The notes under the pieces are model-generated. The model was not told the origin of the DNA. It made no database searches and worked only from the letters and a program-made list of their open reading frames with translations. Positions 13,858-61,614 of a DNA stretch of 64,000 nucleotides are shown piece by piece; the first letter of the stretch is position 1, and every line of letters starts with the position of its first letter. Source of the DNA: Phyllobates terribilis (lineage: Eukaryota); NCBI RefSeq assembly GCF_046119375.1, contig NW_027362772.1, forward strand, positions 250,108,001 to 250,172,000, in the 5' to 3' direction. The position numbers and the translations under genes are program-made.

Positions 13858-15174
13858 CAGGCTCGGACTGGCCCACTGGAGGACAGGAAAATTCTCCGGT
13901 AGGCCGCCCCTGTGAAGGAGTTATAATGAGTAGTGCTATTACACTTGATTCACAATTTGCAAAAAAAGTTATCATCTAATCATTTGACTCGCCCCCTGGT
14001 CCGTGGGGCACTCGGATCCGGGCAGTAGGGGAATGATGGGAGTAGTAGTGGCAACCCGGTTCCGTGGCTCAGGGTGGTCAGGCCAGTGGTAGTCCGTTAT
14101 GCGCTGATGATTATGTCAGACTACGCCACCCGTGGATTGCGGTCATTAGGAACCGCCGCTGCATGCAGACCGCTGGGGCTGATGAGGTATGCAGCTAGGG
14201 TAGTGTGACTCCCCACGGGAAGAGTGCGGCCCCAGGGCAGTATAATGGATGGTGGGAGTGATGGTAGTGAGAGTCCCAGTGCTGATAGTGCTGGAGGAGC
14301 AAAGGAGCACACAGACAACAGGTTGCAGTCCAGGGTCTTTACTAGAACAGGTAAATTGACCCACAAACAGTCCCAGCTAGGAGGGGACCTGGATGTCTGA
14401 GAGCAACGGGGAAATTGGCCCTGGTCAGGGTGAGGGTGTAGGCCTACCGTGCTTTCTGCGCTCCTTCTGGCTATCTCCTCGTTATAGGGTAACAGCCCAC
14501 GTTTCCGAGCTTTCCGTGTATTCTCGCCTGTATGGCCTGCGACGTGGGTTCCTTTCTGCTCCCAGCCTTGTACGGCTTTACTGGTCCCTTCGGTTGTGGC
14601 CGTGCCTCCAGGCTTCTTAGGCCAAGGAATATACAGTCCCTTGCGGACTGGTTATCTGCTGGAGGATGTAGAATCCTCCCAGCCTCAGACACCAAAGTCT
14701 GGTAAAGTAAGTCTTTTATCTGCCAAGACAGGCTCACTTCGCCTCTTGTCTCTGGCTTGTGGCTCTCCTCCTGCCACACTTCCTCTTAGGTGCAACACAA
14801 CTGTCTGTCCCTGCTCTGCTCTGGGACAAGTCTCAGTCCTGAGACAGGTCTTCAAGTTCTCCCTAACCCTGCCCCCAGCACCAGCTTTTATAGGGGCAGC
14901 CAGCTCCCCCTACTGGCCTGAGACAGGAGGCATTGCATGCTAATGTTCCCCTGACTAGAGAACTTCCCCTTGCTCTCAGACACAGCTTTAATTACATTTT
15001 GTGGCATCCAGGCCAGGGTGACACACATTCATTAAACAAGCTAGCCAAGCTAATATTACATGGAAGTAAAAGTAAATTTGTGTACTAGGGTCAGGTTATT
15101 TTTGCATGTAGCTGAACAGTGGGCCCCAAGAATCAATGTTCCTGGTGGGCCTTTGCCAACCCAGTCCGACACTG
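13858..15174. mobile_element. Non-autonomous hAT element (MITE), interrupted by a solo LTR
   Basis: TIRs CAGGCTCGGACTGG / CCAGTCCGACACTG; 8-bp TSD TGCAGGAA at 13850-13857 and 15175-15182. Confidence 0.88.
13985..15025 (-). mobile_element. Solo LTR (1041 bp) of the 4-bp-TSD Gypsy group
   Basis: TG...CA termini (element orientation TGTGTCACCCTGG ... GGACCAGGGGGCGAGTCA); TSD CATT at 13981-13984 and 15026-15029. Confidence 0.88.
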
Positions 15175-18517: not shown

Positions 18518-19530
18518 TGTGGCACCCCAGGAGTCCGGTTGCCACATTGGCATTGCCTCCCTCACAGGGGGTGATGCCATGCCTAGAAGCAAGGAGGGCT
18601 CCCCTTATCAGATAACACCAGCATCCAACACTTTCCTGGCTCCAGACCAGAAGGGGGAGCTCTCCCCCTTGAAATTAGAACCTGGAGGCGGGGTTAGAAA
18701 AGTCAGTTGAAGGGAGTTGGAGACAGGAGAGCGACGAGGAAGAGCCTGGGGAAGGGAGCTGTGATGAAGCTCGCCCCAGAGGAAAAAGCAAAGAATCAGA
18801 CACTGGAGTCCGTGGTTGTGCGGACACTGAAGGCCCGGCAGCTAAATCCGGAGGGCAGGAGACTGCAGGTCTCCTGGCCCCACCAGATGACCGGCGGCTC
18901 AGCAGCATCCTAGGTCCCAGCGCCGCCACAAAGGAGTGACCCCTGAAGAAGGCTCGAGCTTCCTGCCATACGGGTAAGGAATAGACGTTTTGCTCAGGAA
19001 CCAGGGCCGGAGCATAGCTTTAAGCAGCAGGGCCAAAGAGGATAGCGCAGAGGGAAGGCCTACAAATCCACCTGGCGAGGTGGATCCCCAAACTGCTTCT
19101 AGGCCACCAGGATCTCCACCACCAGCTAGTAACAGTGCCCCGGTCTGCTCTGACAAACCACAAGTAAAGGTACAGGAAACCGCCATTAATTTGTTGACTG
19201 GTTATTATCTGCGCCCTCAGCCCTGCACTACACCGCACCAAAAATATCTACCTCCACAATTCATCATGTACTGCCCTGGAGCTTAACCCTGCCTGTGGAG
19301 AGCTGAACCAACTCTGCTGCGTCACCATCAGCTCCAGTAGATCTGCACCGCGGCGGCGGCCCCATATAGCCACATACCATGGGTGGCGTCATGAATATAT
19401 TCCCCAAAATTGACTTTCCCTTTTTTTTACTTGACCGCCCGGGGCCACGGATCGGGTCACTGCTACCGTGACCACCCCGAAAAGGACTGGCCCGGCTACC
19501 TAGTACCCCACGGCCCCAGGGGGCATGTCA
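18518..19530 (+). mobile_element. Solo LTR (1013 bp) of the 4-bp-TSD Gypsy group
   Basis: TGTGGCACCCCAGG ... GGCCCCAGGGGGCATGTCA; TSD TAAC at 18514-18517 and 19531-19534. Confidence 0.9.
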
Positions 19531-20670: not shown

Positions 20671-21860
20671 TGTAGCGTCGGCGTCCCTGCCTCCTGCTAG
20701 GCAGGGACGCTGTTCCCCTCACCTCTCTGCTCCGTGCCCGGCGGCTTCCTCCCGCTCTGCTTGCAGCGCCCGCTCTCCCCCGGTCACTGTGCTTAGGGCG
20801 CGCGCGCGCGCTCCCCCTCTCTTAAAGGGGCCGCGCGCGTCGCCCTAAGGAGTCCCCGGCAAATGGCTGGAGGATCCCTCCATATATAAGGCACCTCCTC
20901 CAAAATGGAGGTGCCCGAGCAATGTTGTTGCACTGTTCACTACTCTGCTTCAGCCCTCAGGTCCTGTTTCCAGTTACCTGCCAGTTACCTGCCAGTTTCC
21001 TGCCAGTTTCCTGCCAGTTTGCTGTCTGATTCCTGCCTGTTATCCGCTTACCCGTTTGCTAGCCTGAGGTCCGACGGTCTGCCTTCCGACTCCTGTCAGT
21101 CTGTCTATGGACCAGCTTGCCCGCTCACCTGGGAGCGCTCATCTGCTACCTGCCTGTTAGCCTACCTGGAGGCTCCGCCGTCACGTGCTGTGACCACCTG
21201 CCAGCCCAGAGACTCTTGCCCGCTCACCTGGGAGCGCTCATCTGCTACCTGCCTGTTAGCCTACCTAGAGGCTCCGCCGTCACGTGCTGTGACCACCTGC
21301 CAGTCCAGAGACTCTTGCCCGCTCACCTGGGAGCGCTCATCTGCTACCTGCCTGTTAGCCTACCTGGAGGCTCCGCCGTCACGTGCCGTGACCACCTGTC
21401 AGTCCAGAGACTCTTGCCCGCTCACCTGGGAGCGCTCATCTGCTACCTGCCTGTTAGCCTACCTGGAGGCTCCGCCGTCACATGCTGTGACCACCTGCTT
21501 ATCCAGAGACTCTCGCCTGCTCACCTGGAGCACTCATCTACCATCTGCCTGCTAGCCTACCTGGAGGCTCAGCCGTCACAGGTCGTACCTGCCCGTTTAC
21601 CCAGAGACTGTCCCGGTCACTTGCTGTGACCTCCTGCCCGTTTACCCAGAGACTGTCCCGGTCACTTGCTGTGACCTCCTGCCCGTTTACCCAGAGACTG
21701 TCCCGGTCACTTGCCATGACCTCCTGCCCGTTTACCCAGAGACTGTCCCGGTCACCTGCTGTGACTGCCTGCCTGTCTTCCCTGGTCGCCACCTGCTTCC
21801 TTACAAGGACCGCCCCCTTGTATAAGTTGCTCAGAGGTTCCGCCTCCCAGACCCGTTACA
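20671..21860 (+). repeat. 5' LTR (1190 bp) containing 99-bp x4 and 45-bp x4 tandem units
   Basis: 99-bp units start at 21119, 21218, 21317 and 21416; 45-bp units span about 21588-21765. Near-identical to the 3' LTR. Confidence 0.95.
20883..20922 (+). promoter_or_regulatory. LTR TATA box and predicted transcript 5' end (self-primer GCCCGAGCAA)
   Basis: TATATAA at 20883; GCCCGAGCAA at 20913-20922 is the exact reverse complement of 21863-21872 just after the LTR. Confidence 0.75.
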
Positions 21861-21873
21861 GTTTGCTCGGGCC

Positions 21874-22824: not shown

Positions 22825-22866
22825 GATCGCTCAGAGAGGTCGCCCTAGACAAAAGTAAACCCTCTC
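22806..22866 (+). promoter_or_regulatory. -1 ribosomal frameshift signal (GGGAAAC + predicted H-type pseudoknot)
   Basis: G GGA AAC at 22806-22812. Stem 1 GTCTAGG 22819-22825 / CCTAGAC 22844-22850; loop GAGAGG pairs with CCTCTC 22861-22866. The -1 frame is open into pol. Confidence 0.85.
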
Positions 22867-22874
22867 CATCCCTG

Positions 22875-28898: not shown

Positions 28899-30114
28899 TG
28901 ACGCGCCCCCTGGGCCATGTTCAAGAGACACCCGGAGCCGGATCTGGATAGGGGTAGTAGTCCGTGTGGCGGTGACCCGGTCCGTGCCCAGGGTGGTCAA
29001 ACTAAGTGTGTGGCAGTCTTTGTAGATGTTGTTTGAGTGCCGACTACGCCACCCGTTGATTGCGGCTAGGAGGCCGCCGCTGCAGAGCAGACCGCTGAGG
29101 CCGGTGGTAGGTTTGTGCAGCAAGGATGGTATAACCCCCAACGGGAGGGGTATGGCCTCAGGGCAGCAGATGTGGAAGTTGGTGGTAGTGATGGTGCAGC
29201 AAGGAAGCTCAGAGACAGGTGATGCAGTTTCAGGGTTTTTACTCACAGGTGTTGCTCCGGTCACTCCGGCCTTGAGTGACCACCCGAGCCGTGCTGCGTC
29301 CACCAGGTGTGGGACTCGGCCAACTCCCAGGCAATCCAGAGCGTGGTCCTGAGCTCCCTTCTCTCTCTCTCTCTGCTGGCCGTTCCCACCAGGGATCCAC
29401 CTTTGTCCGGCTCCCTCGGGCCTCTTGGTGGTAAAACCTTCTCTGGCTTTCCTGACCATATTCGTGGTGTGCCTTCCTGGTGGATGTGGTGAGGGTCGTG
29501 GCAAAACTTAACCACGACCTCCGGTTCCTGGCTAAGGATCATTAGCCTCTGCCAGTTAGGGTTCCGGTACCCGTTTCTGCCAACCCTTCACCCTTCTGGT
29601 TTACTTCTGGGATCTTAGGGTTCCCTCTTGTCTTGTGTCTCTGGGCCTTTCTTCCTCCTTCTCTCCACTACAGGCCTGGCCCTGGAGCTGGGCCCAGCCG
29701 GAGCCACAGCTCCCTGTCAGCCCTCCTGGCTGAGCTCCTCTGCTCTGCTCCTCCTCAGTCTGACTGACCCTGTCCTAAGATGGTGCCCACCATATATACT
29801 CCCTCTATGTGTGAGCCCAGGTGACTAGCACCCAATGGGCTCCTACCTCTATGCCCAGAGTCCCTCCCCTATCTGCCCCTACACTACTGGGATGTTCCCC
29901 CCCCCCTCCCACTCCAGCCAGGGACAGACGCTGTCGTACCTGCACATCTAACTGGTGGGAGTACCGTAGTTCTGTCCCCCGGAAATGGGATGAGTGTAGT
30001 GCATGCAGCTGTCTGAGCTCAGTCCCACACTCCATCCTTACCCGGGAGTGGAATACCACACCTCTGGAGTGAGGTGCAATACCCCTGTAGCAGCCGAGTC
30101 CTCAGGGTGCTACA
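28899..30114 (-). repeat. 3' LTR of the CSD element
   Basis: Direct repeat of 32565-33780; preceded in element orientation by the PPT CCAGGGGGGAA. Confidence 0.95.
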
Positions 30115-30700
30115 TTCCCCCCTGGTAAATCACAGCACGTCCTCGGGCTGTAAAAGAATAAAAACATACCAAAACATACAAACTTTTTAAAACATACACT
30201 AACATATAAAACATTATAAACACATATAATATGACAGGTAACTTCTCATATATTATTTTAGCAATATAACTTTTGATATAAAACTTTTCATATAAAATGT
30301 TCTTAAGCTTCTGGCCACTGTGCAAATTGTGACCAGGTAAAGGGCCACAGTCACTAGAAGAAAACAGCAGTTTTCCTATAAAACCGGTAGGGGGCGCCTT
30401 GGGAAGCGCAACTATGTACAGGTTATGGCCGCTCTCAGTCCTCGGCCAGGTAGAGGGAAAGAACGACCGCTCTCAGTCCTCGGTCAGTGGGGATAAGGGA
30501 TGGCTGCTCACAGTCCTCAGCCTGTGGGGAAAAAGGGATGGCTGCTCACAGTCCTCAGCCTGTGGGGAAAAGGGGCACACAGGTAACAGTTCACACTAGT
30601 CCCAACGGGGACCACACTTCACTTAGCAGCAATTCACATAACAGTTCTTGTAACAGTTCTCATACCCCGACGGGTAACTTTATACAGTTCTCTTTACCGT

Positions 30701-32590
30701 TCAGTGGTAACGATGCCCTCCTGCTCCTTCCTGAAGGTAATTTTCAGACCCGTCCGGGTCCTCTTGATCTCCCTCGTACCGCAGCTCTTCTTCCGTCAAT
30801 CGGTGCACATGAAGGGCGTATGCTCCTTTGGCACACTGATGCCGGGTGAAGGTGACCTCGTCACCCAGGTAAAGGTCACGACCACGGTGTCCCTCCGGCA
30901 GATGAGACTCGACATCCCTGCGGGTGACAAAGACGTCGCCGGGGGTTCTGTGATCCCTGATAAAGCCCCAACCGTGCTCCAGTTGGAACTTGATTACAGT
31001 CCCGGTGGCGCGGGGACCGTGGGCTGCACGGGGGTTTCGCCGGGTCCGGCTTTTCTGCTCCGCACTTTGGACCTGCAGCCGCTCCTCGCGGATCCGCCTC
31101 TCTCGCCGTTCCCTCTGAAAGACCTCCAGCTGCTGACGGCAGCACTCCGCACGCTGGGCTGCGGCCGCCCGGGTCTCTTGGGTGAACCCCATGAGGTTTT
31201 CGCCGGTGGGGTCCCATTCGAACTGCGCCTCCTCCAACGGGAGTGGGGTTATCTTGGCGGGCGCCGGAGCCGGGATCAGGGGCTCACATAGGGGTCTTTC
31301 CTTCCGGAGTCGGAGATTGAGGTACTCCGGTGGCCACTCAAAGGGCTGCCCATCCGGGCAAGTATGTTGCGTGAACAGGTCTTCACCCAAGGGTAGCACA
31401 GTGGAGGTTGAGGGCGCGGTGGTGGTAGCGGCGCCCGGATGCACCAGGCCTTGCGACCAGGCCGGTGGCACCCTAAAGGTGAAGGGCACTGTGGAGACGG
31501 CGGCGCCCGGGGGTACTCGGCCTTGCGACCAGGCCGGTGGCGTTTCCTGCTTGGCCGCGCTCAGGGTCAAGGCGTGTGACGTCACAGGGGGCGTGGCCGC
31601 GGCTCCTGCCGCTTGAGGCCTAGTTTGGAGCGGTGGCGGTGTAGCAACAGGAACGATCAGTGGGACTTCGGGCTCTGCGACGGGGAGCTGGGGCAGGCTT
31701 ACGGCTTCTGGGCTCGGGGTGATGACGTCCCCTTTACCTGCTTCCATCTCTTCAGCTCCTTCCACGGCGTCGTCTCCGGCCTTCGTCCCTCCTGCACCAT
31801 CCTCAGAGGCAGGCGTGCTCCTCGTTGTGGGTGGCGTCCTATGCTGGCGGGTTCCAGCCTGCAGGGCCATTTCTCTGCTCCACTCGGCCAGTACTTCTTG
31901 CTGCACTCGGGCCATCTTCCGAGCCAAGCCCTCCAGCGCGGTCTGTGCATGCTCCCGATCTTTGGGGAGCTGTGCCAGGATCTCCACCAGGCCTTCTGGG
32001 GTGGCGGCCTGCAGCAGGCTCCTGACCATCGGGTCGGTGCTGCCTGACTCTCCCTCCATCTCCGGGTGCGTTCTCTCCAGACTCCTCCAGGCTGCACCCA
32101 TCCTCTCTCTTTTGTTCTTGATCCGCCCATACTGAGGGCGGTCCTGGGGCAACTTGGTGATTGTCAGTTCCAGGGGCAGCCCTCTCACGCTGATGGACAT
32201 TTCTACCATTGCAGTCTCTGCTGGTGGGGGCGGTTTCCGCTTTTGGCGCCATTCCTGGACCTGGCCCACGATGGGAGGTGGCCTCTTGCCACCCTCTGGC
32301 ACGCCCATAATGGCGTCCGCTCTGCCAGGGCGGGAAATCGTCTCAGATGGCGGGAATTGTCTCTTTATGGCGGGAAACTCCGTGGATGGCGGGAAAAGGC
32401 TGCAGATGGCGGGCAAACGACGGGAAACGACCCGAGATGGCGTCCGATGGCGGGGACCCTCCGGAATTGGCGGGAGACTCCTTTTTACGGTAAATGTGAA
32501 CTTTTCTTCAGGCACGCAGTACCCGGTGGTTGCGGGCACGTAATCCTGCCGACTACGCCAAAGTTGACGCGCCCCCTGGGCCATGTTCAA
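30701..32590 (-). CDS. Retroelement accessory protein with a C-terminal cold-shock (CSD/OB-fold) RNA-binding domain and acidic tail
   Basis: 629-codon open frame; the first ATG lies in the LTR, and the internal Met at 32308 gives 535 aa. CSD at 30797-31012: TGTVIKF..EHGWGFI (RNP1-like) ..GDVFVT (RNP2-like) ..L.LGDEVTF...KGAYALHV. Preceded by an R/E-rich helix. Confidence 0.8.
   Translation of the reverse strand: MNMAQGARQLWRSRQDYVPATTGYCVPEEKFTFTVKRSLPPIPEGPRHRTPSRVVSRRLPAICSLFPPSTEFPAIKRQFPPSETISRPGRADAIMGVPEGGKRPPPIVGQVQEWRQKRKPPPPAETAMVEMSISVRGLPLELTITKLPQDRPQYGRIKNKRERMGAAWRSLERTHPEMEGESGSTDPMVRSLLQAATPEGLVEILAQLPKDREHAQTALEGLARKMARVQQEVLAEWSREMALQAGTRQHRTPPTTRSTPASEDGAGGTKAGDDAVEGAEEMEAGKGDVITPSPEAVSLPQLPVAEPEVPLIVPVATPPPLQTRPQAAGAAATPPVTSHALTLSAAKQETPPAWSQGRVPPGAAVSTVPFTFRVPPAWSQGLVHPGAATTTAPSTSTVLPLGEDLFTQHTCPDGQPFEWPPEYLNLRLRKERPLCEPLIPAPAPAKITPLPLEEAQFEWDPTGENLMGFTQETRAAAAQRAECCRQQLEVFQRERRERRIREERLQVQSAEQKSRTRRNPRAAHGPRATGTVIKFQLEHGWGFIRDHRTPGDVFVTRRDVESHLPEGHRGRDLYLGDEVTFTRHQCAKGAYALHVHRLTEEELRYEGDQEDPDGSENYLQEGAGGHRYH
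32542..32560 (-). promoter_or_regulatory. Primer-binding site complementary to the tRNA-Ser 3' end
   Basis: TGGCGTAGTCGGCAGGATT (19 nt) matches vertebrate tRNA-Ser(AGA/TGA) ...AATCCTGCCGACTACG-CCA; 4 nt downstream of the 5' LTR. Confidence 0.88.
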
Positions 32591-33780
32591 GAGACACCCG
32601 GAGCCGGATCTGGATAGGGGTAGTAGTCCGTGTGGCGGTGACCCTGTCCGTGCCCAGGGTGGTCAAACTAAGTGTGTGGCAGTCTTTGTAGATGTTGTTT
32701 GAGTGCCGACTACGCCACCCGTTGATTGCGGCTAGGAGGCCGCCGCTGCAGAGCAGACCGCTGAGGCCGGTGGTAGGTTTGTGCAGCAAGGATGGTATAA
32801 CCCCCAACGGGAGGGGTATGGCCTCAGGGCAGCAGATGTGGAAGTTGGTGGTAGTGATGGTGCAGCAAGGAAGCTCAGAGACAGGTGATGCAGTTTCAGG
32901 GTTTTTACTCACAGGTGTTGCTCCGGTCACTCCGGCCTTGAGTGACCACCCGAGCCATGCTGCGTCCACCAGGTGTGGGACTCGGCCAACTCCCAGGCAA
33001 TCCAGAGCGTGGTCCTGAGCTCCCTTCTCTCTCTCTCTCTGCTGGCCGTTCCCACCAGGGATCCACCTTTGTCCGGCTCCCTCGGGCCTCTTGGTGGTAA
33101 AACCTTCTCTGGCTTTCCTGACCCTATTCGTGGTGTGCCTTCCTGGTGGATGTGGTGAGGGTCGTGGCAAAACTTAACCACGACCTCCGGTTCCTGGCTA
33201 AGGATCATTAGCCTCTGCCAGTTAGGGTTCCGGTACCCGTTTCTGCCAACCCTTCACCCTTCTGGTTTACTTCTGGGATCTTAGGGTTCCCTCTTGTCTT
33301 GTGTCTCTGGGCCTTTCTTCCTCCTTCTCTCCACTACAGGCCTGGCCCTGGAGCTGGGCCCAGCCGGAGCCACAGCTCCCTGTCAGCCCTCCTGGCTGAG
33401 CTCCTCTGCTCTGCTCCTCCTCAGTCTGACTGACCCTGTCCTAAGATGGTGCCCACCATATATACTCCCTCTATGTGTGAGCCCAGGTGACTAGCACCCA
33501 ATGGGCTCCTACCTCTATGCCCAGAGTCCCTCCCCTATCTGCCCCTACACTACTGGGATGTTCCTCCCCCCCTCCCACTCCAGCCAGGGACAGACGCTGT
33601 CGTACCTGCACATCTAACTGGTGGGAGTACCGTAGTTCTGTCCCCCGGAAATGGGATGAGTGTAGTGCATGCAGCTGTCTGAGCTCAGTCCCACACTCCA
33701 TCCTTACCCGGGAGTGGAATACCACACCTCTGGAGTGAGGTGCAATACCCCTGTAGCAGCCGAGTCCTCAGGGTGCTACA
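32565..33780 (-). repeat. 5' LTR of the CSD element
   Basis: TGTAGCACCCTGAG ... GGCCCAGGGGGCGCGTCA in element orientation. Confidence 0.95.
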
Positions 33781-34730: not shown

Positions 34731-37561
34731 TAAGGTGTTATGAAGAGTTTTGGAAACGTTTTCATGCAGCCTTTTGATTAAACAGTGCGTAGTTTGGAGT
34801 GGATTCCATCAGGAGATACTTCAAAGTAGTGACATCAGCTTTAATTTTTTCCAACAATAGTTTTTCAAAATCGGAAATGGAAAAAAAAAGCTCTATGTAT
34901 GAACAGACAAGAGGATTAATATTAAACTCTATGGGAAGAATCTTTCAAACAACTTTTCAGGTGATTTTGTGTGGCGTCTTGTGGAACCGATCCGCCCAAA
35001 AAACTCTATCTAGCCAAAAAATAAATCAAAAAGTCATATATACCCCAAAATGCTACCAATGAAAATACCAACTCATTCCGCAAACAGCAAACTCTTCACA
35101 GCTCAACGGGAAAATCAAAAAAATGATATCTCAGAATTTGAGGAAACAAAACTAAATATCTTTTATGCTGTAAATCTATTTTTTTCTGTACCCGTCCAAA
35201 AAAACTAATAAAGATTTTTCAGTATACATACCCCAACATGGTGCCCTGAAAAACATCCTGTCCCAGGATAAAAACCATGTGCCTACATCAAGAGAAAAAT
35301 AAAATAAAGCTATGGCTCTCAGAAAGGTTTTGTGAACGTTGTTGACTAATGATGTGGAATTACAACGGTAAATCTTGTCATATTGGATGGGACTCTACAG
35401 ACCTTCAGGTTCCTATCCTATAATGACCATATTGGGTGCTGTAAGATATGATCTTCTGGAGGAAACCTGTTTTGTGGAGCTGTAAATCATCTGTCGTAAC
35501 AAAATTTACTAAATCATTACGAGGAACATTTCCAATAAAACTGAAGATTCACAATAACTTGTAGGTAAAATAAACTGTCGGAAACCCAACGTATGGACGT
35601 CCAATCTAAGTGTTGGAGAGCTTCAGGTCTTAGCTTTGGATAATGAAGGTTCTTAAATGAAGCCTCCATAACACGTGGAACTACTGTAATAAAAGTACTT
35701 GTCACCCTATTCAGAATCCCAGGAAAGGTCACCGATTTAGCTGACTCCTGAAAGAGTAGACAAATCTCCCGGATCCCACCGAATCATACAGAAAACAGTT
35801 CTACCGTATGGTTTCTTCCATGAATGGAATGAGATGATAGTTGCTGCTCATAAAATTTTATGAAGAAGGGAGGGAAGAGGAGAAACAGACATTATACTGC
35901 AGGTTCCATGGAATATTACGACCCACAACTGTCATCTCCTATCTCAACAATGGAAAAATCTATATTCAGAAAAGACAGATTTTCCCATTACTGAAATAGG
36001 AGATGGCAGACAGTGCTTAAAAGATTTTATGGAGGAGCTAAAGGTAGACACAAACATTCTGCTGCAAGTTCTCCTAAAACCACAGCTACAGTTCTCCATT
36101 GAACTTTATGAGCGCCAACTGTCATCTCCTATCTCAGTAATGGGAAAATTTGTATTTACGGGAGACACATTTTACCTATGAATTGAGTATTTTGAGAATG
36201 AATGATCAATCCAGGAAGAGTAAGAAGCAGATTTCTCTGATAGGATGTGTTACAAAGTTTCTTATTCTTACATGTACTATTGATTTATGAAAACAAATAA
36301 AACAATGGCTACCCTTCAAGCATCGGTTTTAGAGGGTGTGTCTGGTTTAGAAACCTCATTCTGAAAAGTCCTATAAAAAGTTTGATTTCTGAGTGGTTCC
36401 CTATTCAGGACACTTATATATTAGCTAGAGTGGACAATAACTAGAAAAAGTACCTTTTCTGTGCCCATGTTTGACACACAGCTCATTTGTGGCACCCCAG
36501 GGGTCTGGTTTCCACAGTAACAGCAATGTTATGTCTGAGAGCAGGTGGGAGGTCTCTTGGTCAGGAATCCTATGCATGCCACACCTCCTGCCCAGTCCTG
36601 GGAGGGGAAGAACTTCCCCTATATAAACCTGGGGCTGAGGCAGGGTTAGGAAGTTCAGAGGGAGAGTTCAGCCAGGAGGGCTGACAGGGAGCTGTGGCTC
36701 CGGCTGGGCCCAGCTCCTGGGCCATGCCAGAAGTAGAGACAGAGAAGAGAAGCAGCTATGGGAAGAAGCAACAGGAGCTCTGTGGGAGCAGTGTTACAAG
36801 GAGTCAGGGGCTGGCAGCTGCAGAGCTCGCCCTGACTGAGAAGATTTCTTACCGGACCCGGAGTCCGAGGCTGTGGGGACTAACTCCTACCCAGCAGCAG
36901 AATCCGTCAGGCAGGGGATTTCAGGTCCTCTGGCCAAGAAACCCGAAGGCACGGTCACACGCATGGGACCAGCACCGCCGTCGTGGAGCGGAAGCTACTA
37001 GAAGGCCCCGAGTCACCGGCCATACGGGTGAGCACCACACGGTACACTCAGGGACGTGGGCTACTTTTACCCGCCTCTAGCAAGGTAGCCAGAAGAGTAC
37101 AGTTAGCTGGGAAGGCCTACAACTCCACCTGGCCAGGGGAGATCCCATCTGCTCAAGGACTGACCAGGCCCCGATCGCTAGCAAGTACTCCGGGAGGGTC
37201 TATCTTTGTCACCAGTAAAGACCCTGAACTACACGCATCGTCTCTGAGTGGTTCCTGCTACCCCCATCATCCACGTCGGCTGCCCTGAGGCCATACCCCT
37301 CCCGTTGGGGGTTATACCATCCCCGCTGCACCATCTTTCCACCGGCCTCAGCGGTCTGCCCTGCAGCGGCAGCTCCAAAGCTGCATTCAACGGGTGGCGT
37401 AGTCATCCAACATCTACTGCTAGTAGACTCGCCACTTAGTTTGACTCCCTGGGCACGGACCGGGTCACCGCCACGAGACTACTACCCCCATCTGATCCGG
37501 CTCCGGGTAAGCCCCCGTGCACGCGATGCCGCACGACACAGACCCAGGGGTGCGTCAACTT

Positions 37562-37580
37562 TTGGCGTAGTCGGCAGGAT
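37562..37580 (+). promoter_or_regulatory. tRNA-Ser primer-binding site
   Basis: TGGCGTAGTCGGCAGGATT, 4 nt after the LTR; identical to the PBS of the 28899-33780 element. Confidence 0.88.
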
Positions 37581-38017
37581 TTCGTGCCCGCAACCACCGG
37601 GTACTGCGTGCCTGAAAAAGACTGTTCAAACTTACCAGTGGTGAAGATTCCCGCCATTCGTGAAGATTCCCGCCATCCGGCGCCATCTTTTGCCTCCTTC
37701 CCGCCATCGGTGGAGTTTTCCCGCCATCCGGCGCCATCTTCTGCCTTCTTCCCGCCATCCGTGGAGTTTTCCCGCCGTTGGACGCCATCTTGAAGACGCC
37801 GCGCGGGAAGAAGAGGGGCGTGGACTCCGAAGGCGCGCGAGAACTGAAGCCCCGCCTCACGTCCGGACGTTGCGTAAGGTCCTGGAAGGAGCCCAGCAGA
37901 CGCCGACGTCACAGGAGCGCGACGGAAGGTCCTCAACCCTGACGATCCACTGCGGAGCCGCGGCCTACGGAAGAGGATCATCGCAAGGTAGGCCACAGTC
38001 CACTAGGGGGGAGGAAG

Positions 38018-38419
38018 ATGTCGGATACGGAGGAGAGCTTCACTGCCTCAACCCCCGCCAGCGCCAGCGCTGCTGCAGTCATGCCTTTTACCATGCCCTA
38101 TATCCCGGGAGCAGCCTGGCTACCCCAATACTCAGGGGAGTCACATACCCTGAATGACTTTAGTGAAAAGCTGGATAGCCTCTTCCAGGTGTACCCCCTC
38201 ATAGAAGAGCAAAAAGTGAGCATCCTGGTGGCCCAATTAACCGGGGCAGCCCAAAGGGAGGTAAAGTCCTGGCCACCTGGGAGGAGGACTGTCGCAGAGA
38301 TACTAACCCAGCTAACCGAGGAGGAGCTGCAGTACTACCAATACGAGGAAAGCCAAGAGGACCCGGACGGGTCTGAGGACTACCCTCAGGAGGGAGCACA
38401 AAGAGGACATAGCTACTGA
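38018..38419 (+). CDS. Truncated Gag N-terminus (PNMA-like) fused in frame to the acidic tail of the CSD protein
   Basis: WLPQYSGE...FSEKLDSLF...QKVSILVAQLTGAAQREV resembles the start of a Gypsy capsid. It ends LTEEELQYYQYEESQEDPDGSEDYPQEGAQRGHSY*, versus LTEEELRYEGDQEDPDGSENYLQEGAGGHRYH* in the CSD ORF. Confidence 0.7.
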   Translation: MSDTEESFTASTPASASAAAVMPFTMPYIPGAAWLPQYSGESHTLNDFSEKLDSLFQVYPLIEEQKVSILVAQLTGAAQREVKSWPPGRRTVAEILTQLTEEELQYYQYEESQEDPDGSEDYPQEGAQRGHSY

Positions 38420-40022
38420 AGGGAAGTAGCGTGAATAAAGAGCTGTAAATAGTTACCCGTAAGGGTACAAGGACTGCTGCTAATTAAAATATGGTCCCCG
38501 TTGGGATTAGTGAATTGTTCCCCATGTGCCCCTATCTTAAACCAGGCTGAGGACTGTGAGCAGCCATTCCTTATCCCCACTGGCCGAGGTCTGAGAGCGG
38601 CCATATCCTGTAAATAATTATGTGTTTCTAGTAATTTATGGGAGTCTTTGGTGGATTTACCGGAAATCCTTTGTACATGGTTGGAGCGTAACCCAGGAAT
38701 GGACTAAAGACTGTTAAGGACTCGGGGCAGGACAGACCCCTACCTGGTTACCTCTCCCTGTTTTGGTGAAATGGACACCTTGCTTTTCTTCAAAACTGCA
38801 CCCGGTTGCGGACACGCCGTAACCATCTTTATGTGTTTTTCTTATTGTATTATTATTGTTTATACCTTGTTATGTTTTTCTAAAAATATGTTTAGTCCCG
38901 GAGTACTAAATTTCACTAGGGGGGAATGTGGCACCCCAGGGGTCTGGTTTCCACAGTAACAGCAATGTTATGTCTGAGAGCAGGTGGGAGGTCTCTTGGT
39001 CAGGAATCCTATGCATGCCACACCTCCTGCCCAGTCCTGGGAGGGGAAGAACTTCCCCTATATAAACCTGGGGCTGAGGCAGGGTTAGGAAGTTCAGAGG
39101 GAGAGTTCAGCCAGGAGGGCTGACAGGGAGCTGTGGCTCCGGCTGGGCCCAGCTCCTGGGCCATGCCAGAAGTAGAGACAGAGAAGAGAAGCAGCTATGG
39201 GAAGAAACAACAGGAGCTCTGTGGGAGCAGTGTTACAAGGAGTCAGGGGCTGGCAGCTGCAGAGCTCGCCCTGACTGAGAAGATTTCTTACCGGACCCGG
39301 AGTCCGAGGCTGTGGGGACTAACTCCTACCCAGCAGCAGAATCCGTCAGGCAGGGGATTTCAGGTCCTCTGGCCAAGAAACCCGAAGGCACGGTCACACG
39401 CATGGGACCAGCACCGCCGTCGTGGAGCGGAAGCTACTAGAAGGCCCCGAGTCACCGGCCATACGGGTGAGCACCACACGGTACACTCAGGGACGTGGGC
39501 TACTTTTACCCGCCTCTAGCAAGGTAGCCAGAAGAGTACAGTTAGCTGGGAAGGCCTACAACTCCGCCTGGCCAGGGGAGATCCCATCTGCTCAAGGACT
39601 GACCAGGCCCCGATCGCTAGCAAGTACTCCGGGAGGGTCTATCTTTGTCACCAGTAAAGACCCTGAACTACACGCATCGTCTCTGAGTGGTTCCTGCTAC
39701 CCCCATCATCCACGTCGGCTGCCCTGAGGCCATACCCCTCCCGTTGGGGGTTATACCATCCCCGCTGCACCATCCTTCCACCGGCCTCAGCGGTCTGCCC
39801 TGCAGCGGCAGCTCCAAAGCTGCATTCAATGGGTGGCGTAGTCATCCAACATCTACTGCTAGTAGACTCGCCACTTAGTTTGACTCCCTGGGCACGGACC
39901 GGGTCACCGCCACGAGACTACTACCCCCATCTGATCCGGCTCCGGGTAAGCCCCCGTGCACGCGATGCCGCACGACACAGACCCAGGGGTGCGTCACATT
40001 CATTTCCATAGGCACTGCTTTT

Positions 40023-46672: not shown

Positions 46673-46686
46673 TCTATATATATATA

Positions 46687-53421: not shown

Positions 53422-53530
53422 CAGCCGCAGCTGTGTCTGTGACTGCAATACACTCCAATGGATTTAATAGGTCTCTGTACACATTCTGGGGGAGATATAA
53501 CGTCCCTCGTATACGATCCCGGTCACTGCC

Positions 53531-53560
<30 letters not shown>

Positions 53561-53561
<1 letters not shown>

Positions 53562-54634
53562 GTGACACCCCAGGGGTCTGGTTGCCACAGTGATAGAGAT
53601 ATTACGTCTGAGAGCAGGTGGGGGGTCTCTTGGTCAGGAATCCTATGCATGCCACACCTCCTGCCCAGTCCTGGGAGGGGAAGAACTTCCCCTATATAAA
53701 CCTGGGGCTGAGGCAGGGTTAGGGAGTTCAGAGGGAGAGTTCAGCCAGGAGGGCTGACAGGGAGCTGTGGCTCCGGCTGGGCCCAGCTCCTGGGCCATGC
53801 CAGAAGTAGAGACAGAGAAGAGAAGCAACTATGGGAAGAAACAACAGGAGCTCTGTGGGAGCAGTGTTACAAGGAGTCAGGGGCTGGCAGCTGCAGAGCT
53901 CGCCCTGACTGAGAAGATTTCTTACCGGACCCGGAGTCCGAGGCTGTGGGGACTAACTCCTACCCAGCAGCAGAATCCGTCAGGCAGGGGATTTCAGGTC
54001 CTCTGGCCAAGAAACCCGAAGGCACTGTCACACGCATGGGACCAGCACCGCCGTCGTGGAGCGGAAGCTACTAGAAGGCCCCGAGTCACCGGCCATACGG
54101 GTGAGCACCACACGGTACACTCAGGGACGTGGGCTACTTATACCCGCCTCTAGCAAGGTAGCCAGAAGAGTACAGTCAGTTTGGGAGGCCTACAACTCCG
54201 CCTGGCCAGGGGAGATCCCATCTGCTCAAGGACTGACCAGGCCCCGATCGCTAGCCAGTACTCCGGGAGGGTCTATCTTTATCACCAGTAAAGACCCTGA
54301 ATTACACCGCATCGTCTCTGAGTGATTCCTGCTACCCCCATCATCCACTTCGGCTGCCCTGAGGCCATACCCCTCCCGTTGGGGGTTATACCATCCCCGC
54401 TGCACCATCCTTCCACCGGCCTCAGCGGTCTGCCCTGCAGCGGCAGCTCCAAAGCTGCATTCAACGGGTGGCGTAGTCATCCAACATCTACTGCTAATAG
54501 ACTCGCCACTTAGTTTGACTCTCTGGGCACGGACCGGGTCACCGCCACGAGACTACTACCCCTATCTGATCCGGCTCCGGGTAAGCCCCCGTGCACGCGA
54601 TGCCGCACGACACAGAAGGCCCAGGGGCGCATCA
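53561..54634 (+). mobile_element. Solo LTR (1074 bp), same family as the 36488 element LTRs, inserted in (TA)n
   Basis: High similarity to 36488-37557; TG...CA; flanked by TATA repeats. Confidence 0.92.
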
Positions 54635-54679
<45 letters not shown>

Positions 54680-54680
<1 letters not shown>

Positions 54681-56267
54681 TGCTCAAAAAAATAAAGGGA
54701 ACACTCAAATAACACATCCTAGATCTGAATGAATGATATATTCTCATTGAATACTTTGTTCTTTACAAAGTTGAATGTGCTAACAACAAAATCACACAAA
54801 AATCATCAATGGAAATCAAACTTATTAACCAATGGAGGCCTGGATTTGGAGTCACCCCCAAAATTAAAGTGGAAAACACACTACAGGCTGATCCAACTTT
54901 GATGTAATGTCCTTGTGACTTGTTTTAATGAGGCTCAGTATTGTGTGTGGCCTCCACGTGCCTGTATGACCTCCCTACAATGCCTGGGCATGCTCCTGAT
55001 GAGGTTGCGGATGGTCTCCTGTGGGATCTCCTTCCAGACCTGGACTAAAGCATCCGCCAACTCCTGGACAGTCTGTGGTGCAATGTGACGTTGGTGGATG
55101 GAGCGAGACATGATGTCCCAGATGTGCTCAATTGGATTCAGGTCTGGGGAAAGGGAGGGCCAGTCCATAGCTTCAATACCTTCATCTTGCAGGAACTGCT
55201 GACACACTCCAGCCACATGAGGTCTGGCATTGTCCTGCATTAGGAGGAACCCAGGGCCAACCGCACCTGCATATGGTCTCACAAGGGGTCTGAGGATCTC
55301 ATCTCGGTACCTAATGGCAGTCAGGCTACCTCTGGCAAGCACATGGAGGGCTGTGCGGCCCTCCAAAGAAATGCCACCCCACACCATTACTGACCCACTG
55401 CCAAACCGGTCATGCTGAAGGATGTTGCAGGCAGCAGATCGCTATCCATGGCATCTCCAGACTCTGTCACGTCTGTCACATGTGCTCAGTGTGAACCTGC
55501 TTTCATCTGTGAAGAGCACAGGGCGCCAGTGGCGACTTTGCTAATCCTGGTGTTCTGTGGCAAATGCCAAGCGTCCTGCACGGTGTTGGGCTGTGAGCAC
55601 AACCCCCATCTGTGGACGTCGGGCGCTCATACCACCCTCATGGAGTCGGTTTCTAACCGTTTGTGCAGACACATGCACATTTGTGGCCTGCTGGAGGTCA
55701 TTTTGCAGGGCTCTGGCAGTGCTTCTCCTGTTCCTCCTTGAACAAAGGCAGAGGTAGCGGTCCTGCTGCTGGATTGTTGCCCTCCTACGGCCCCCTCCAC
55801 GTCTCCTGGTGTACTGGCCTGTCTCCTGGTAGCGCCTCCAGCCCCTGGACACTACTCTGACAGACACAGCAAACATTCTTGCCACAGCTCGCATTGATGT
55901 GCCATCTTGGAGGAGATCCCACAGGAGACCATCCGCAACCTCATCAGGAGCATGCCTAGGTGTTGTAGGGAGGTCATACAGGCACGTGGAGGCCACACAC
56001 AATACTGAGCCTCATTTTGACTTGTTTTAAGGACATTACATCAAAGTTGGATCAGCCTGTAGTGTGTTTTTCCACTTTAATTTTGGGGGTGACTCCAAAT
56101 CCAGGTTCTCCATTGGTTAATAAATTTGATTTCCATTGATGATTTTTGTGTGATTTTGTTGTCAGCACATTCAACTTTGTACAGAACAAAGTATTCCATG
56201 AGAATATTTAATTCATTTAGATCTAGGATGTGTTATTTGAGTGTTCCCTTTATTTTTTTGAGCAATG
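54680..56267 (-). mobile_element. Tc1 (DD34E) copy B with a rearranged right end (about 355-bp inverted arms)
   Basis: Same TIR as copy A. Transposase 54935-55903 has two TAG stops and lacks its N-terminus. 55912-56267 is an inverted copy of 54680-55031. Confidence 0.88.
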
Positions 56268-56271
56268 TATA

Positions 56272-59200
56272 TGACGCGCCCCCTGGGCCGTGGGAGTACT
56301 CGGCAGCCGGGCCTCTGCGTATGCCGGTGGGGGATATCACGGTGGCTGGCCCGGTCCGTGACCCAGCGCGGTCAGTAAAAAGGGGAATTTATAGGGGATT
56401 TGGAAAGTTCGTGATGCCACCTGTGGAATGCGGCAAAAGGGGTGCCGCCACTGCGGAGCAGTCCTCTGGAGCGGGTGTTACGGCAGCAGGGATGGTGTGG
56501 CTCTCCACAGGTAGAGCTAGCTCCAGGGCAGCGTGGGGTGTAATGGACGATGCTGGGGAGAGACGGCAGGATGGTCCCGGAGGAAAGGCGGACACTCACA
56601 TGGGGGTAAGCTTCAGTACTTTTACTGGTGATGGTGCAGGCACGGTCCAGGGTACTCTGGGTGAAGGGTGCACTTTTGGACTCTCCCCAGTGAGCGGGTA
56701 TAGGGCCTCCTGATCGGTGGCTTTTCTCGCTAAGCTTCTGGCCTGCCTGGAACTAGGCCTAGCTTGGTTACTGTCTCTCTCTCCCTTGCACCTGCTGACT
56801 TGGTGGTAGGGCCTTCTCTTTGGAGATCACTCTCCCTGGACACTGGGGCCTCCGTGACTCCTAGCCCTGGTACTGTAGTCAGCGTTTGGCAAACCTGGGA
56901 CCTGTAGTTCTCCAGGGGTTCCGGTAGTCCCTACTGGGTGTAAAGAGTCCCTGTAGGCGCGGACGCGGTGTCCGGTATATATCTCGGGGTGAGCCTGGTA
57001 TGCTCCTCTGCCCCCCTTGTTACTTCTTCCTTCTCTTCTCGCCTTCGGCCACACTTAAGGCCCTCACTAGACTTAACCTCGTGCTGTAGGCTTTGGCTCG
57101 CCTCTTCACTGCTCTCTGAGCATCAGCATGCTCTCAGCTCACTCTGAGCTCTGTTCCTCTCTGAACACTAAACTGAAACTAACTGAGCTGCCTGGCTCCA
57201 CCCTCCCTATATATATCCCTAACGGGCTCCCTCTGCTGGTCTGAGGTGGTAGGGTGGAGGTGTGTGAATGTGTGAGGGCCTCTTGTGGAGAAGTCCATCC
57301 ACGCACCCTTCTGGGTTCTGTGGCACCAGTGCGTAGCAGGGCGCCACATTCCCCCCTAGTAAAACTCAGTACTCCTGGATTGAAGCATTTTTCTCAAAAC
57401 AGGTTAAACAATAACATCTTTTCTTCCCTTTATGGGAGGCACTTTGCTTGAACGTTACAGGTAACAACAATAACAAGTATAATAATTATAATAACATTAA
57501 AGTTACAGCAAGTCCCATAACCTGGTGTCCATTTCACCGATGAAGGAACATGAGGGACCCACCTGAAAACCCTCAACCTAGGCCCTGGGCGTGGCTACAG
57601 GGCATAGGTGATCCAGGTGCTGGACCACGTCTTCTGCCACGCCAAATGGGTTTTTGTTCCGTGGTCACTTAAGGGGCACTCCAGGGAGTGCAACTATGTA
57701 CATGAACAGTTTTTGGGCTGCTCACAGTCCTCAGCCACCGAGTCCTTTATATATACCCTTACGGGTTGCTAAATAAACACATATATTTCAGTTTATGCAA
57801 TAAACATTATGCAATACCCTACTGGGTAACTATTTATACTGCAGGTATTTTTTTTTTAACTTACTCGTTATACCTGACAGGGGTCTGGCCTTTCGTGCTA
57901 CTCGATGACCTACGCAGTACAGGGATGCATGTAGTGTGGATGCTTGCGCTATTTTCCGCTCTATGTGTTGGTGGACTGCAAGACTGCCTTAACCTCTCTA
58001 CGGGATTGGCAAGTACACTGGTTACTGGGCCTACTGGCTCTGCTTCTACCGGTGATCCTTCTTCCGGGGATTCTTCATGAGCAGGCTCTTCCGGGGCACT
58101 TTCAGGTCTTACTTGCAGTGGAGAGTCTTCTGGCTGTTGGTAGAACTGTAGCACAGGTATTATTACCGCTCCATCCAGTTGAGACCAATCTACCGGGAAA
58201 TCTCCTAAGTCAGTATGGAGTACTTCTTTAGGCTCCTCCGGTACGGTGAGAGGCACTTCCTCCTGGGGCTTAAGCGGACTTGGGCACAACTTCAGATGGT
58301 CTCTTGATACCGTTGCAGTTGTTCTTCCTCCGCCTTTGCTAATTAGACAGGTTTTCCTATTATCAAATCTGGAATTCAACACAGTGTAAGGTTCTCTTTC
58401 CCACTGGTCGTCAAGTTTATGGCTTCTTCTCTTTCATTTCAGCACAACTTCTCCAGGTGTCAAGGGTTCGGCTGGTGCACTCTTGTTGTACTGTGCTTCC
58501 TGCTTATCTCTCACCCTACTTAGACTGTCTTCGACACAGGCCTGTACTTTCTTGTACTGCTCCTGTCGAGTCGTATCCCAGTCTTCAGTGGACATATCTG
58601 CTTCTGGCTCTACCACTCCAAGCTCCAGGTCCATGGGCAACTTTCCGGGTCTTGCTCTCATGAGGTACTCTGGAGTACAATTGGTGGAACTCACAGGTAT
58701 GTGATTGTACAGATCTACCAGGTCAGGTAGTTTGTCTGGCCACTGGTTTCTTCCTTCTAGAGGTAAGGTCTTCAACAGGTCGATGACTATGTTATTCATC
58801 TTTTCACATAACCCATTGGTTTGGGGGTGGTACCTTGTAGTCCGGATCTTCTTACACCCGTACAGATGGCAAAACTCCTTGAACAGCTCGGCTTCAAAGG
58901 CAGGGTCTTGATCCGTCAGCACCTCTTCCGGGTATCCATGGGGCCTGCAGAAGTACGCTTGAAACGTCTTTGCTACAGTTTCTGCCATCAGATCCTTGAC
59001 GGGGGCTACCACCAGGAACCGGGAGTAGTGATCCACCATGGTCAGGGCATACAAGTAGCCTGACCTGCTGGGTGACAGCTTGATGTGATCCAGAGCGACG
59101 ATCTCCAGGGGCTGGGTTGTCTTGATGGACTGCAGGGGTGCCTTCTGGATGCTGTAGTCTTTTCTTCTGAGGCTACAGGGTCCACAATCCCGGCACCACC

Positions 59201-61590
59201 TCTCTATGGAACTCCGCATTCCAACACAATAAAACCGATTCTTCAGGAGGGTTTCCAGCTTCTTCCAGCCAAAGTGCCCTGCTTGATCATGGTAGGCCTC
59301 CAACACCATCTGGATGTCTGTCCTTGGCACTACGATCTGCCATACCATCTCATGGGTCTTAGGGTTGACATACCTTCCGCACAGCTTCTCTCTATAGATG
59401 AACAGCCGGCTTCTCTCATTCCATAGTTGCTTGGCTTGGGGAGGAGCGTCCTTCTCAAGGGAGGAACCTTCCTGGGTTATCAGTTCTTTGATACGGCTGA
59501 TAACTGGGTCGCTGTCCTGGGTCTCCTTCCAACTGTGATGAGGTAAAGGGTTTAGCGTCTTACCACGATACCTCCGGGAGGTGCGCTGCTCGTGGACCAT
59601 CCCATTTCTGTGGAAGGCAGGTAGCTCAATCTCCTCCAGGTCATTCACTTCTTCTTCAGTAGCCGACTGGTGCGGCATTCTGGATAGGGCATCGACGTTG
59701 GCGTTCTAGTGGCCTGCCCAGTACTTGATGGTGAACTGATAGTTTGACAGCCGGGCCATCCAACGCTGTTCAATGGCTCCCAACTTGGCTGTCTCTAGAT
59801 GTGTCAAGGGGTTGTTGTCAGTGTAAGCCGTGAACTTACTGGAGGCCAAGTAGTGCTTGAATCGTTCAGTGATGGCCCAGACCAAGGCCAGGAACTCCAA
59901 CTTGAAGGAGTTATAGTTTTCCGGATTCCTCTCGGTCGGACGAAGCTTCCTGCTAGCATAGGCAATCACCTTCTCCTTGCCATTCTGCTTCTGACTCAAC
60001 ACAGCTCCTAGTCCCTCATTGCTGGCATCAGTGTACAGCAGGAAAGGTTGGCTGTAGTCAGGGTAGGCCAGGATTTCTTTGCCAGTCAGGATCTCTTTCA
60101 TCACTGCAAAGGACTCAGCCTGCTCTTTACCCCACTGGAAGGGGGGGGGGTTGCCTCTGTTGGACTGTCCTACCAGGAGATCTTGCAAAGGCTCTGCCTT
60201 CTTGGTGTAGTCCTTTACAAATCTCGGGTAATACCCGACCAGTCCCAAGAACTGACGTACCTCCTTGAGATCCTTCGGTTTCTTCCATTTCTGGATGGCA
60301 GTGACCTTCTCCGGGTCTGGTGCTACTCCTTCTGGATTAACGATGTGCCACAGGTACTGAACCTTCTGTTTGAGCAGGTGGCACTTGGAAGGCTTCAACT
60401 TCATCCCATACCGGGACAACGACTCAAATACCTCCGCTAGGTGCTTCAAATGGTCCTCATACGTCTTGGAGTACACTATCACGTCATCCAGGTATAGCAG
60501 CACGGTCTCGAAGTTACGGTGTCCCAAACAGCACTCTATCAATCTCTGGAACGTTCCAGGGGCGTTGCAGAGTCCGAACGGCATACTGTTGAACTCGCAG
60601 AGTCCCATCGGGGTAGTGAAGGCCGTCTTCTCCCAGTCCTCCTCAGCAACTGCTACTTGCCAGTACCCACTAGTGAGGTCAAGGGTAGAGAAGTAATTTG
60701 CGACTTTAGTGCAGCCAGGGATTCCTCGATACGGGGCAAAGGGTATGCATCTTTATGTGTTATGCGATTAATCTGTCTGTAATCTACACACTTCCTCATG
60801 CTTCCATCCTTTTTCCTGACCAGGACCAGGGGAGCTGCCCAGGTGCTACAGCTATCTCTTATTACCCCTGCCTTCCTCATGTTATGCAGCATTTCCTTCG
60901 CTTTCTGGTAGTGTGCTAGTGGTATGGGCCTGTAACGTTCTTTGATGGGTGGATGGTCACCTGTGGGTATATGGTGTTGTACCCCTTTAATCCTCCCGAA
61001 ATCAAGTGGGTGTTTGCTGAATACCTGTTCGTATTCCTGAACCACCCTGTATACACCTTGTTTCTGATGGACAGGAGTGGCGTCAGTCCCAACATAAAGC
61101 TGTTGGCAAACCTGGGACCTGTAGTTCTCCAGGGGTTTCGGTAGTCCCTACTGGGTGTAAAGAGTCCCTGTAGGCGCGGACCCGGTGTCCGGTATATATC
61201 TCGGGGTGAGCCTGGTATGCTCCTCTGCCCCCCTTGCTACTTCTTCCTTCTCCTCTCACCTTCGGCCACACTTAAGGCCCTCACTAGACTTAACCTCGTG
61301 CTGTAGGCCTTGGCTCGCCTAAGTACCGCAGCCAGTGTGCTGCCTCTTCGCTGCTCTCTGAGCATCAGCACGCTCTCAGCTCACTCTGAGCTCTGTTCCT
61401 CTCTGAACACTAAACTGAAACTAACTGAGCTGCCTGGCTCCACCCTCTCTATATATATCCCTAACGGGCTCCCTCTGCTGGTCTGAGGTGGTAGGGTGGA
61501 GGTGTGTGAGTGTGTGAGGGCCTCTTGTGGAGAAGTCCATCCATGCACCCTTCTGGGTTCTGTGGCACCAGTGCGTAGCAGGGCGCCACA
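56272..61590 (-). mobile_element. Gypsy LTR retrotransposon (pol-encoding type), defective: gag, protease, PBS and half of the 5' LTR deleted
   Basis: 3' LTR 56272-57348; truncated 5' LTR about 61103-61590; TSD TATA; PPT at 57349-57360; RT-RNase H-integrase order. Confidence 0.92.
57861..61101 (-). pseudogene. pol: Frameshifted pol: RT (YLDD), RNase H, integrase
   Basis: WAAPLVLVRKKDGSMRKCVDYR; MPFGLCNAPGTFQRL..YLDD; YTDASNEGLGAVL; HDQAGH..CGPC; LDHI...TDQ...TNGLCE. Split over ORFs 60653-61045, 59706-60608, 58434-59678 and 57861-58382. Confidence 0.92.
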
Positions 61591-61614
61591 TATATATATA
61601 TATATATATATACA

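Follow-up and report, generated by a model that had tools for sequence, protein, structure and literature searches.

Six insertions of one long terminal repeat (LTR) retrotransposon lineage, named E1 to E6, were analyzed in a repeat-rich stretch of vertebrate DNA from the poison frog Phyllobates terribilis, 64,000 nt in length (assembly GCF_046119375.1, contig NW_027362772.1, positions 250,108,001-250,172,000) and hereafter called the window. On sequence comparison, all six belong to a single Ty3/Gypsy (Metaviridae) lineage. Two of them, E3 and E4, lack pol and were very probably mobilized in trans by gag-pol relatives, because both are young, are flanked by perfect target duplications and retain a primer-binding site, a polypurine tract and a common motif in the 3′ untranslated region (UTR). 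E3 carries a long open frame that encodes a cold-shock domain (CSD). We lean slightly towards the view that pol-less elements with this gene form a long-lived lineage of their own.

The original prediction had described six insertions with shared ends, LTRs and 4-bp target duplications, and all of them were found at the expected places (Table 1). TG...CA LTRs and a target duplication delimit all six, although the length of the duplication is ambiguous for E5 (2, 4 or 6 bp) and E6 (2 or 4 bp), both of which lie in TA runs; full LTRs measure 1013-1216 bp. The start pattern TGTRDCRCCC occurs 11 times in the window against 1.4 expected, a number reached in none of 100 shuffles. Nine of the 11 matches are LTR starts, and the remaining two, at 10639 and 11334, were rejected as LTRs because no LTR follows either. 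The end pattern as tested occurs five times (0.4 expected) and misses the ends of E4 and E5, which are one base shorter. A division into helper-like and satellite-like members had also been proposed. E3 and E4 are pol-less and E6 has pol; E1, E2 and E5 consist of a solo LTR each and so offer no interior that could be classified. AT stands in the middle of five of the six target duplications. E5 and E6 are part of an insertion chain (53535-63276) made up of a TA run, E5, a TA run, a Tc1-like element, E6, a TA run, a second Tc1-like element and a TA run.

Table 1. Features of the six related insertions in the window.
Feature	Position	Strand	Remarks
E1, solo LTR	13985..15025	-	1041 bp; target duplication CATT; z 8.8-24 to the other five LTRs
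E2, solo LTR	18518..19530	+	1013 bp; target duplication TAAC; closest LTR to E6
E3, pol-less element with CSD gene	28899..33780	-	target duplication GATG
E3 LTRs	5′ 32565-33780; 3′ 28899-30114	-	1216 bp each, 4 differences
E3 primer-binding site	32542..32560	-	same as E4 site
E3 stop-free frame	30701..32662	-	653 codons
In-frame ATGs of E3 frame	32584, 32308, 31915	-	in U5; at leader end; at start of homolog P0001
Cold-shock domain of E3	30803..31006	-	residues 553-620; Pfam CSD 29.6 bits, cut-off 27
E4, pol-less element	36488..39996	+	target duplication CATT
E4 LTRs	36488-37557; 38927-39996	+	1070 bp each, 4 differences
E4 primer-binding site	37563	+	
PNMA-type gag start of E4	38018..38313	+	ends after about 99 codons; 85% to P0002
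Tail of CSD gene in E4, after the domain	38314..38419	+	in frame with gag piece
E5, solo LTR of E4 type	53561..54634	+	97% to E4 type; target duplication TATA; within TA run
E6, 5′-deleted pol element	56272..61590	-	target duplication TATA
E6 LTRs	3′ 56272-57348; truncated 5′ 61103-61590	-	5′ LTR fused directly to pol
E6 pol remnant, RT-RNase H-integrase	57861..61102	-	four pieces (two stops, one frame change); Pfam
3′-UTR motif, 21 nt, exact, in E3	two copies in 30502..30560	-	
The same motif in E4	38545		
The same motif in E6	57736		

LTR pairs were aligned after 25 bases had been trimmed from each end, and scores were expressed as z against shuffles; the LTR families of two window elements with other ends and 5-bp duplications (20671-27119 and 48560-53421) served as controls. 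All 15 pairs among the six lineage LTRs align (z 8.8-104), whereas the 12 pairs with the two control families reach at most 2.9. Since the trimmed LTRs are all homologous, they differ inside by divergence and not by separate origin. The LTRs of E3 and E6 had been described as alike at the end and different inside; the difference is real and represents divergence within one lineage. Their 3′ terminal 18-mer is identical, exactly as predicted. E1 agrees with it at 16 of 18 positions and E2 at 15 of 18, only 10 of 18 positions match between the 5′ ends of E3 and E6, and the LTR most similar to that of E6 is E2 (72% over 272 columns). From these alignments, the 18-mer is a common end of the lineage, close to the majority sequence, and a specific pairing of E3 and E6 is not supported.

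Mobilization in trans is well supported by the state of the two pol-less elements. The LTRs of a pair differ at 4 of 1216 positions in E3, at 4 of 1070 in E4 and at 11 of 463 plus one 25-bp indel in E6, a comparison that rests on one pol copy, and one copy cannot date a family. The primer site and leader are identical at 52 of 54 bases between E3 and E4; we take the site to match the 3′ end of serine transfer RNA (tRNA-Ser). Both elements possess the primer site and the polypurine tract, E6 has only the latter, and the tracts of all three end alike. A 21-nt motif in the 3′ UTR is exact in E3, E4 and E6, although these UTRs otherwise align poorly, and a shared UTR motif follows within about 40 nt of the stop of integrase in E6 and of the CSD gene in E4. 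An in-frame ATG of E3 stands where the leader homology with E4 ends. The location of a shared motif after both stops, together with this ATG at the leader end, suggests that the CSD gene occupies the position of gag-pol. No consistent RNA structure was found in the shared LTR block or the 3′-UTR motif (five segments, z +0.5 to -2.2), and Rfam gave no match within the elements. Matches to the 21-nt motif in two metagenome contigs were dismissed as chance because no further similarity accompanied them. The leaders of E3 (32353-32453, minus strand) and E4 (37651-37790, plus strand) contain at least five CCGCCAT repeats, which presumably resemble YY1 sites.

The frame of E3 comprises a helical part, a Pro/Ala-rich linker, a long helix, the CSD and an acidic tail. 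Its 620 interior codons run without a stop, which none of 500 local shuffles equals. In the predicted structure a long helix leads into a barrel of five strands (predicted local distance difference test, pLDDT, 86), and the model matches cold-shock folds. When a profile of eight family members was compared with PDB, YBX1/YBX2 were the best matches (E 4e-12), followed by bacterial CspA (2e-9) and LIN28 (5e-5); the fold search, in which bacterial Csp ranked as high, leaves the YBX, bacterial Csp and LIN28 types unseparated. The E3 domain is about 31-32% identical to YBX1/YBX2 and retains the phenylalanines of RNP1 and RNP2. The CSD of vertebrate Y-box proteins is nearly invariant, and by that measure the E3 protein would not be a Y-box ortholog: it has the same fold as YBX1/YBX2 and matches them best by profile, but evolves fast and has other flanking regions.

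No gag or pol remnant was found in E3, where the CSD frame starts at the leader end. A reading of the frame as a degenerate gag was tried and rejected: it began from a weak pairwise match (E 0.84), 293 of 1000 shuffles reached the profile score, and at the DNA level the alignment with gag was no better than with shuffles. The single-sequence model of the N-terminal part was unusable (pLDDT 45), and an Atlas search with this part returned no usable match; Atlas matches for the CSD part, at 0.85, serve as leads only. Between the ATG in U5 and the end of the leader (32584-32308, minus strand) the frame is open as well, across the terminal 18-mer and the primer site, and E6 has ACG in place of this ATG.

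In E4 the domain itself is absent: its frame consists of a gag start joined to the last ~35 codons of the CSD gene. A poison-frog relative of the gag part, P0002 (6 matches among 523 candidates), is a 327-aa gag with a PNMA domain (26.6 bits, cut-off 25) and a zinc knuckle and without a CSD; the gag fragment of E4 gave no Pfam match of its own. A contig with a loose end past 38313 goes on as gag like P0002, which fixes the position of the junction in E4. The join indicates that gag and the CSD gene shared either one RNA or two co-packaged RNAs. Elements with gag-pol and CSD together had been named beforehand as evidence against separate satellites, and E4 goes halfway towards such a case, since it joins gag to the CSD tail and may derive from one parent element.

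The pol side of the lineage is represented in the window by E6. Half of the 5′ LTR is missing from this copy, together with the primer site, gag and protease; the loss took place after insertion, at a short sequence common to both sides. No CSD follows its integrase. E6 is an older, dead member of the lineage and not the helper of E3. Thus, of the earlier proposal that pol-less members move in trans, the movement is supported by the young LTR pairs, the duplications and the cis signals, and the pairing of E3 with E6 is not. We take the order of reverse transcriptase (RT), RNase H and integrase in E6 to fit the Cer type rather than Gmr1. A gene model of Ranitomeya imitator, P0007, contains a gag 54% like that of E4 followed by an RT 70% like that of E6, an order that places the gag type of E4 and the pol type of E6 in one lineage; P0007 also has an earlier, unrelated RT, which is 56-64% alike in the same comparison. 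Through the gag of P0002, the lineage as a whole appears to be of PNMA type (Gypsy12_DR/Cer-like).

The mosaic structure predicted for the LTRs of E3 and E4 was confirmed, in that aligned and non-aligned blocks alternate. A 76-bp block is 92% identical (z 16) and the 3′ third aligns strongly (z 33), whereas no alignment was obtained for the U3-like part (z about 0) or for the middle (z 2). Inside the elements, E3 and E4 share the primer region (z 15) as well as the CSD tail plus proximal UTR (z 30). The distal UTR of E4 has its counterpart in E6 (z 5.7) instead of E3 (z 0.5), and the U3-like part of E4 aligns with E1 (z 11) and E2 (z 7). We infer from this pattern that subfamilies have recombined, for which template switching inside shared particles is the simplest route; uneven constraint may be part of the cause. 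The 92% identical block (29662-29737 and 36664-36739) lies just downstream of a TATA-like box and includes a perfect 12-bp palindrome, present in E3, E4 and E5 and absent from E1, E2 and E6, that might be an RNA dimer contact. The TATA-like box is located at LTR position 133-134 in E1, E4, E5 and E6 and at 317 in E3, whose U3-like part is unaligned; none was found in the E2 LTR.

Relatives of the CSD gene occur as stand-alone proteins in poison frogs, and all named close protein relatives found for the element genes come from this group (Phyllobates, Ranitomeya, Dendrobates and Anomaloglossus). A representative search with the CSD protein gave 36 matches, and for the 10 whose source was looked up these were six frog proteins, one dinoflagellate multi-CSD protein, one unrelated repeat protein and two unnamed entries. 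A profile search (5 matches among 7999 candidates scored) added P0044. The seven frog relatives are from four species and are 245-556 aa long; no gag, RT or integrase domain was detected in them (six were scanned, P0044 was judged by precomputed domains). The precomputed domains of P0044 are presumably those of a DNA-transposon nuclease. Identity of P0001 to the E3 frame is 61% across 433 columns and 76% in the region of the CSD. A member of the CSD family at greater distance, 32% identical around the domain, is represented by two further proteins, P0024 and P0045, and the family may extend past poison frogs.

In a contig comparison covering four runs, in which contig depth does not equal copy number, tens of thousands of contigs from the two large runs fall on the E3-E4 stretch, and single CSD sites are covered by dozens of different contigs. 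Depth varies among the gag piece, the CSD tail and the distal UTR, a difference set aside here because depth gives no valid ranking of parts. The CSD elements thus appear, from these matches, to be a many-copy family. Most of the CSD frame also has counterparts, at about 85-89%, in contigs from a second organism. A 223-nt segment of E4 shows one difference in organism B, where cross-contamination is possible as the same study includes organism A. Queries with the CSD region found no related loci in viral or metagenome contigs, and neither did the RT or two DNA motifs in viral contigs. No RNA data set was listed as containing the sequence, a result without bearing on expression.

How the pol-less members spread may be explained as follows, a proposal that we hold with slightly less than even confidence: CSD-bearing pol-less satellites would be copied by the Gag-Pol of complete relatives, and the CSD protein would act on its own RNA. 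One anuran Ty3/Gypsy lineage would have split into several diverged, recombining LTR subfamilies and at some point gained a Y-box-like cold-shock gene, which would have replaced gag-pol (E3) or stood beside gag (the parent of E4). Pol-less members keep the LTR ends, primer site, 3′-UTR motif and polypurine tract, which a helper reads in cis; Gag-Pol of complete members elsewhere in the genome, and not of E6, would package, copy and integrate their RNA. Template switches between co-packaged RNAs could then generate both the mosaic LTRs and the gag-to-tail join of E4. The putative role of the CSD protein would be to bind its own RNA and either stabilize or escort it, a selfish gain that might keep the frame under selection.

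Several observations weigh against this proposal. E4 derives most simply, by one deletion, from an element with gag upstream of the CSD gene and possibly with pol between them. The only pol copy, E6, is older than E3 and E4 and lacks the primer site. The frog CSD homologs are known here as protein sequences and could lie outside LTR elements. Had a third gene been translated separately, its product would be annotated as stand-alone too, so that protein searches cannot separate the two cases. In the E3 protein, the Trp that precedes RNP1 and the His within RNP2, which we take to be RNA-contact residues of Y-box proteins, are replaced. Variants in the CSD frame give a weak signal from a selected list, 12 of 22 being synonymous against 34% expected (p 0.04).

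The first of these points leads to the strongest rival, less likely in our judgment but to be taken seriously, in which an autonomous gag-pol-CSD subfamily possesses the CSD gene as a third, accessory gene. On this view E3 and E4 arose by deletion and are still copied in trans, and E6 comes from a sister subfamily that lacks the gene. A single deletion would then account for E4, whose distal UTR and polypurine region are closer to the pol element than to E3; E6 shows that large internal losses occur in the lineage, and selection on the frame is easiest to explain where an element supplies its own enzymes. Such an arrangement does not fit well with the lack of a CSD after the integrase of E6, or with the frame of E3, which begins at the leader end without a gag or pol remnant. 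That none of the seven frog CSD models contains integrase argues weakly in the same direction.

The copying of satellites for their own gain also differs from the exchange proposed earlier, in which CSD-only satellites give gag-pol helpers an RNA chaperone that they need or profit from. We consider this mutualism, and with it a return supply of the CSD protein to helpers, improbable. A protein shared freely in trans may be open to cheats like E4, a recent insertion in spite of its missing domain, and the host presumably has its own Y-box proteins. In favor of an exchange, the CSD frame is conserved and missing from the pol copy E6, and the shared 3′-UTR motif could be a common binding site. 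Host YB-1 supports the replication of human immunodeficiency virus (HIV) (PMC6040738), and cooperative complexes have been proposed in wheat (PMC9744471).

Little credence can likewise be given to a broader scenario that combines helpers with long-lived satellites whose only gene would be that of a captured Y-box-type RNA chaperone, which would bind the common 3′-UTR motif, shield or package the RNA in the germ line and so help to drive the Ty3 expansion of poison-frog genomes. Weakest of all is the notion that E3 and E4 inserted complete and lost their interiors later, no short form being mobilized: E6 did lose its 5′ part in this way, and no contig among those listed bridges the E4 junction, but E3 and E4, with 4 differences per LTR pair, must be very young, no cis signal is missing from either, and one contig joins the primer-site leader straight to the start of the CSD frame, albeit weakly, with 37 letters on its short side.

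Satellites copied by complete relatives have counterparts in plants. The wheat families RLG_Wilma, Sabrina and WHAM (PMC9744471) are likewise autonomous and non-autonomous Gypsy partners with common termini and primer site, and some of their short variants hold unique coding segments in place of gag-protease, as here. In the wheat partners, however, only a few motifs are still shared and co-evolution was shown on populations, whereas the frog LTRs are homologous throughout and the cargo is a CSD. The conserved LTR termini on which the wheat study relies (PMC9744471) are found in the frog lineage too, where they are also expected from common descent. The other criteria of that study are a common primer-binding site of helper and satellite, insertion ages that overlap, subfamilies of matching structure and conserved promoter motifs. 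RLG_Cereba's partnership with RLG_Quinta was likewise deduced from the LTR ends, the primer site and the polypurine tract, with a protein-coding non-autonomous member; Quinta gives gag and is centromeric (PMC11302176), while E3 gives a CSD protein without detectable gag homology. Helper and satellite Gypsy partners have been surveyed in sugar beet as well (PMC13570524).

Capture of a CSD is known from bird endogenous retroviruses (ERVs), in which Pfam PF00313 was found within LTR elements, in 46 ERVs and through several captures (PMC12287698). These are Retroviridae (PMC12287698), unlike the Ty3/Gypsy lineage studied here, in which a diverged family (26-76% around the domain) is present in several frog species. 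Pol-less LTR elements of Xenopus (PMC4585706) resemble ours in having no pol homology, and no CSD appears in the part of that text examined. A PNMA-domain gag with a zinc knuckle, as in the frog lineage, is described for Gypsy12_DR-like elements (PMC3789554) and for Silurana 'Cer'/'Gmr' elements (PMC4131045). The word 'cold' has no occurrence in two surveys of frog LTR elements (PMC4131045, PMC12822217). In the literature searched, which excludes Repbase, subscription journals and supplements, no CSD was found in a vertebrate Ty3/Gypsy element, the bird ERV paper being the only related report (PMC12287698). An RNA-chaperone role of the CSD protein is plausible by analogy with host YB-1, which supports viral RNA metabolism and early HIV steps (PMC6040738).

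Helper-satellite partnership and CSD capture are thus each known separately, and what stands out is the conserved Y-box-like cargo, not the shared ends. Poison frogs have large genomes in which recently active Ty3 elements abound (PMC6278860, PMC12822217), and surveys count pol-bearing copies. If the proposal is true, an overlooked part of the Ty3 expansion would consist of pol-less elements in high copy number that carry a conserved Y-box-like gene, and these would provide a clean case, independent of the bird retroviruses, of a retrotransposon that retains a captured host RNA-binding domain. Whether the cargo of a non-autonomous element serves the element itself or its helper thereby becomes a testable question.

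Several other repeats were noted in the window. The two elements used as LTR controls may form a second helper/satellite pair. The one at 20671-27119 is a chromodomain Gypsy element with gag-pol and the 5-bp duplication CATAG. That at 48560-53421 is pol-less and very young (LTRs differing at 2 of 1436 positions, duplication CAGCC), and in its frame of 709 codons, 171-bp tandem repeats come after a gag start that is 48% like that of its possible helper. Probable miniature DNA transposons, short and with an inverted structure inside, lie at 35875-36270, which has Rfam matches below threshold only, and at 12623-12859. Long open pieces of a long interspersed nuclear element (LINE) at 3975-6968 appear nested in an older LINE (982-7700); going by the translations, we take the inner one to be CR1-like and the outer one L2-like. 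A decayed LTR-element remnant at 43700-44800 shows RT/RNase H similarity and a 105-bp direct repeat.

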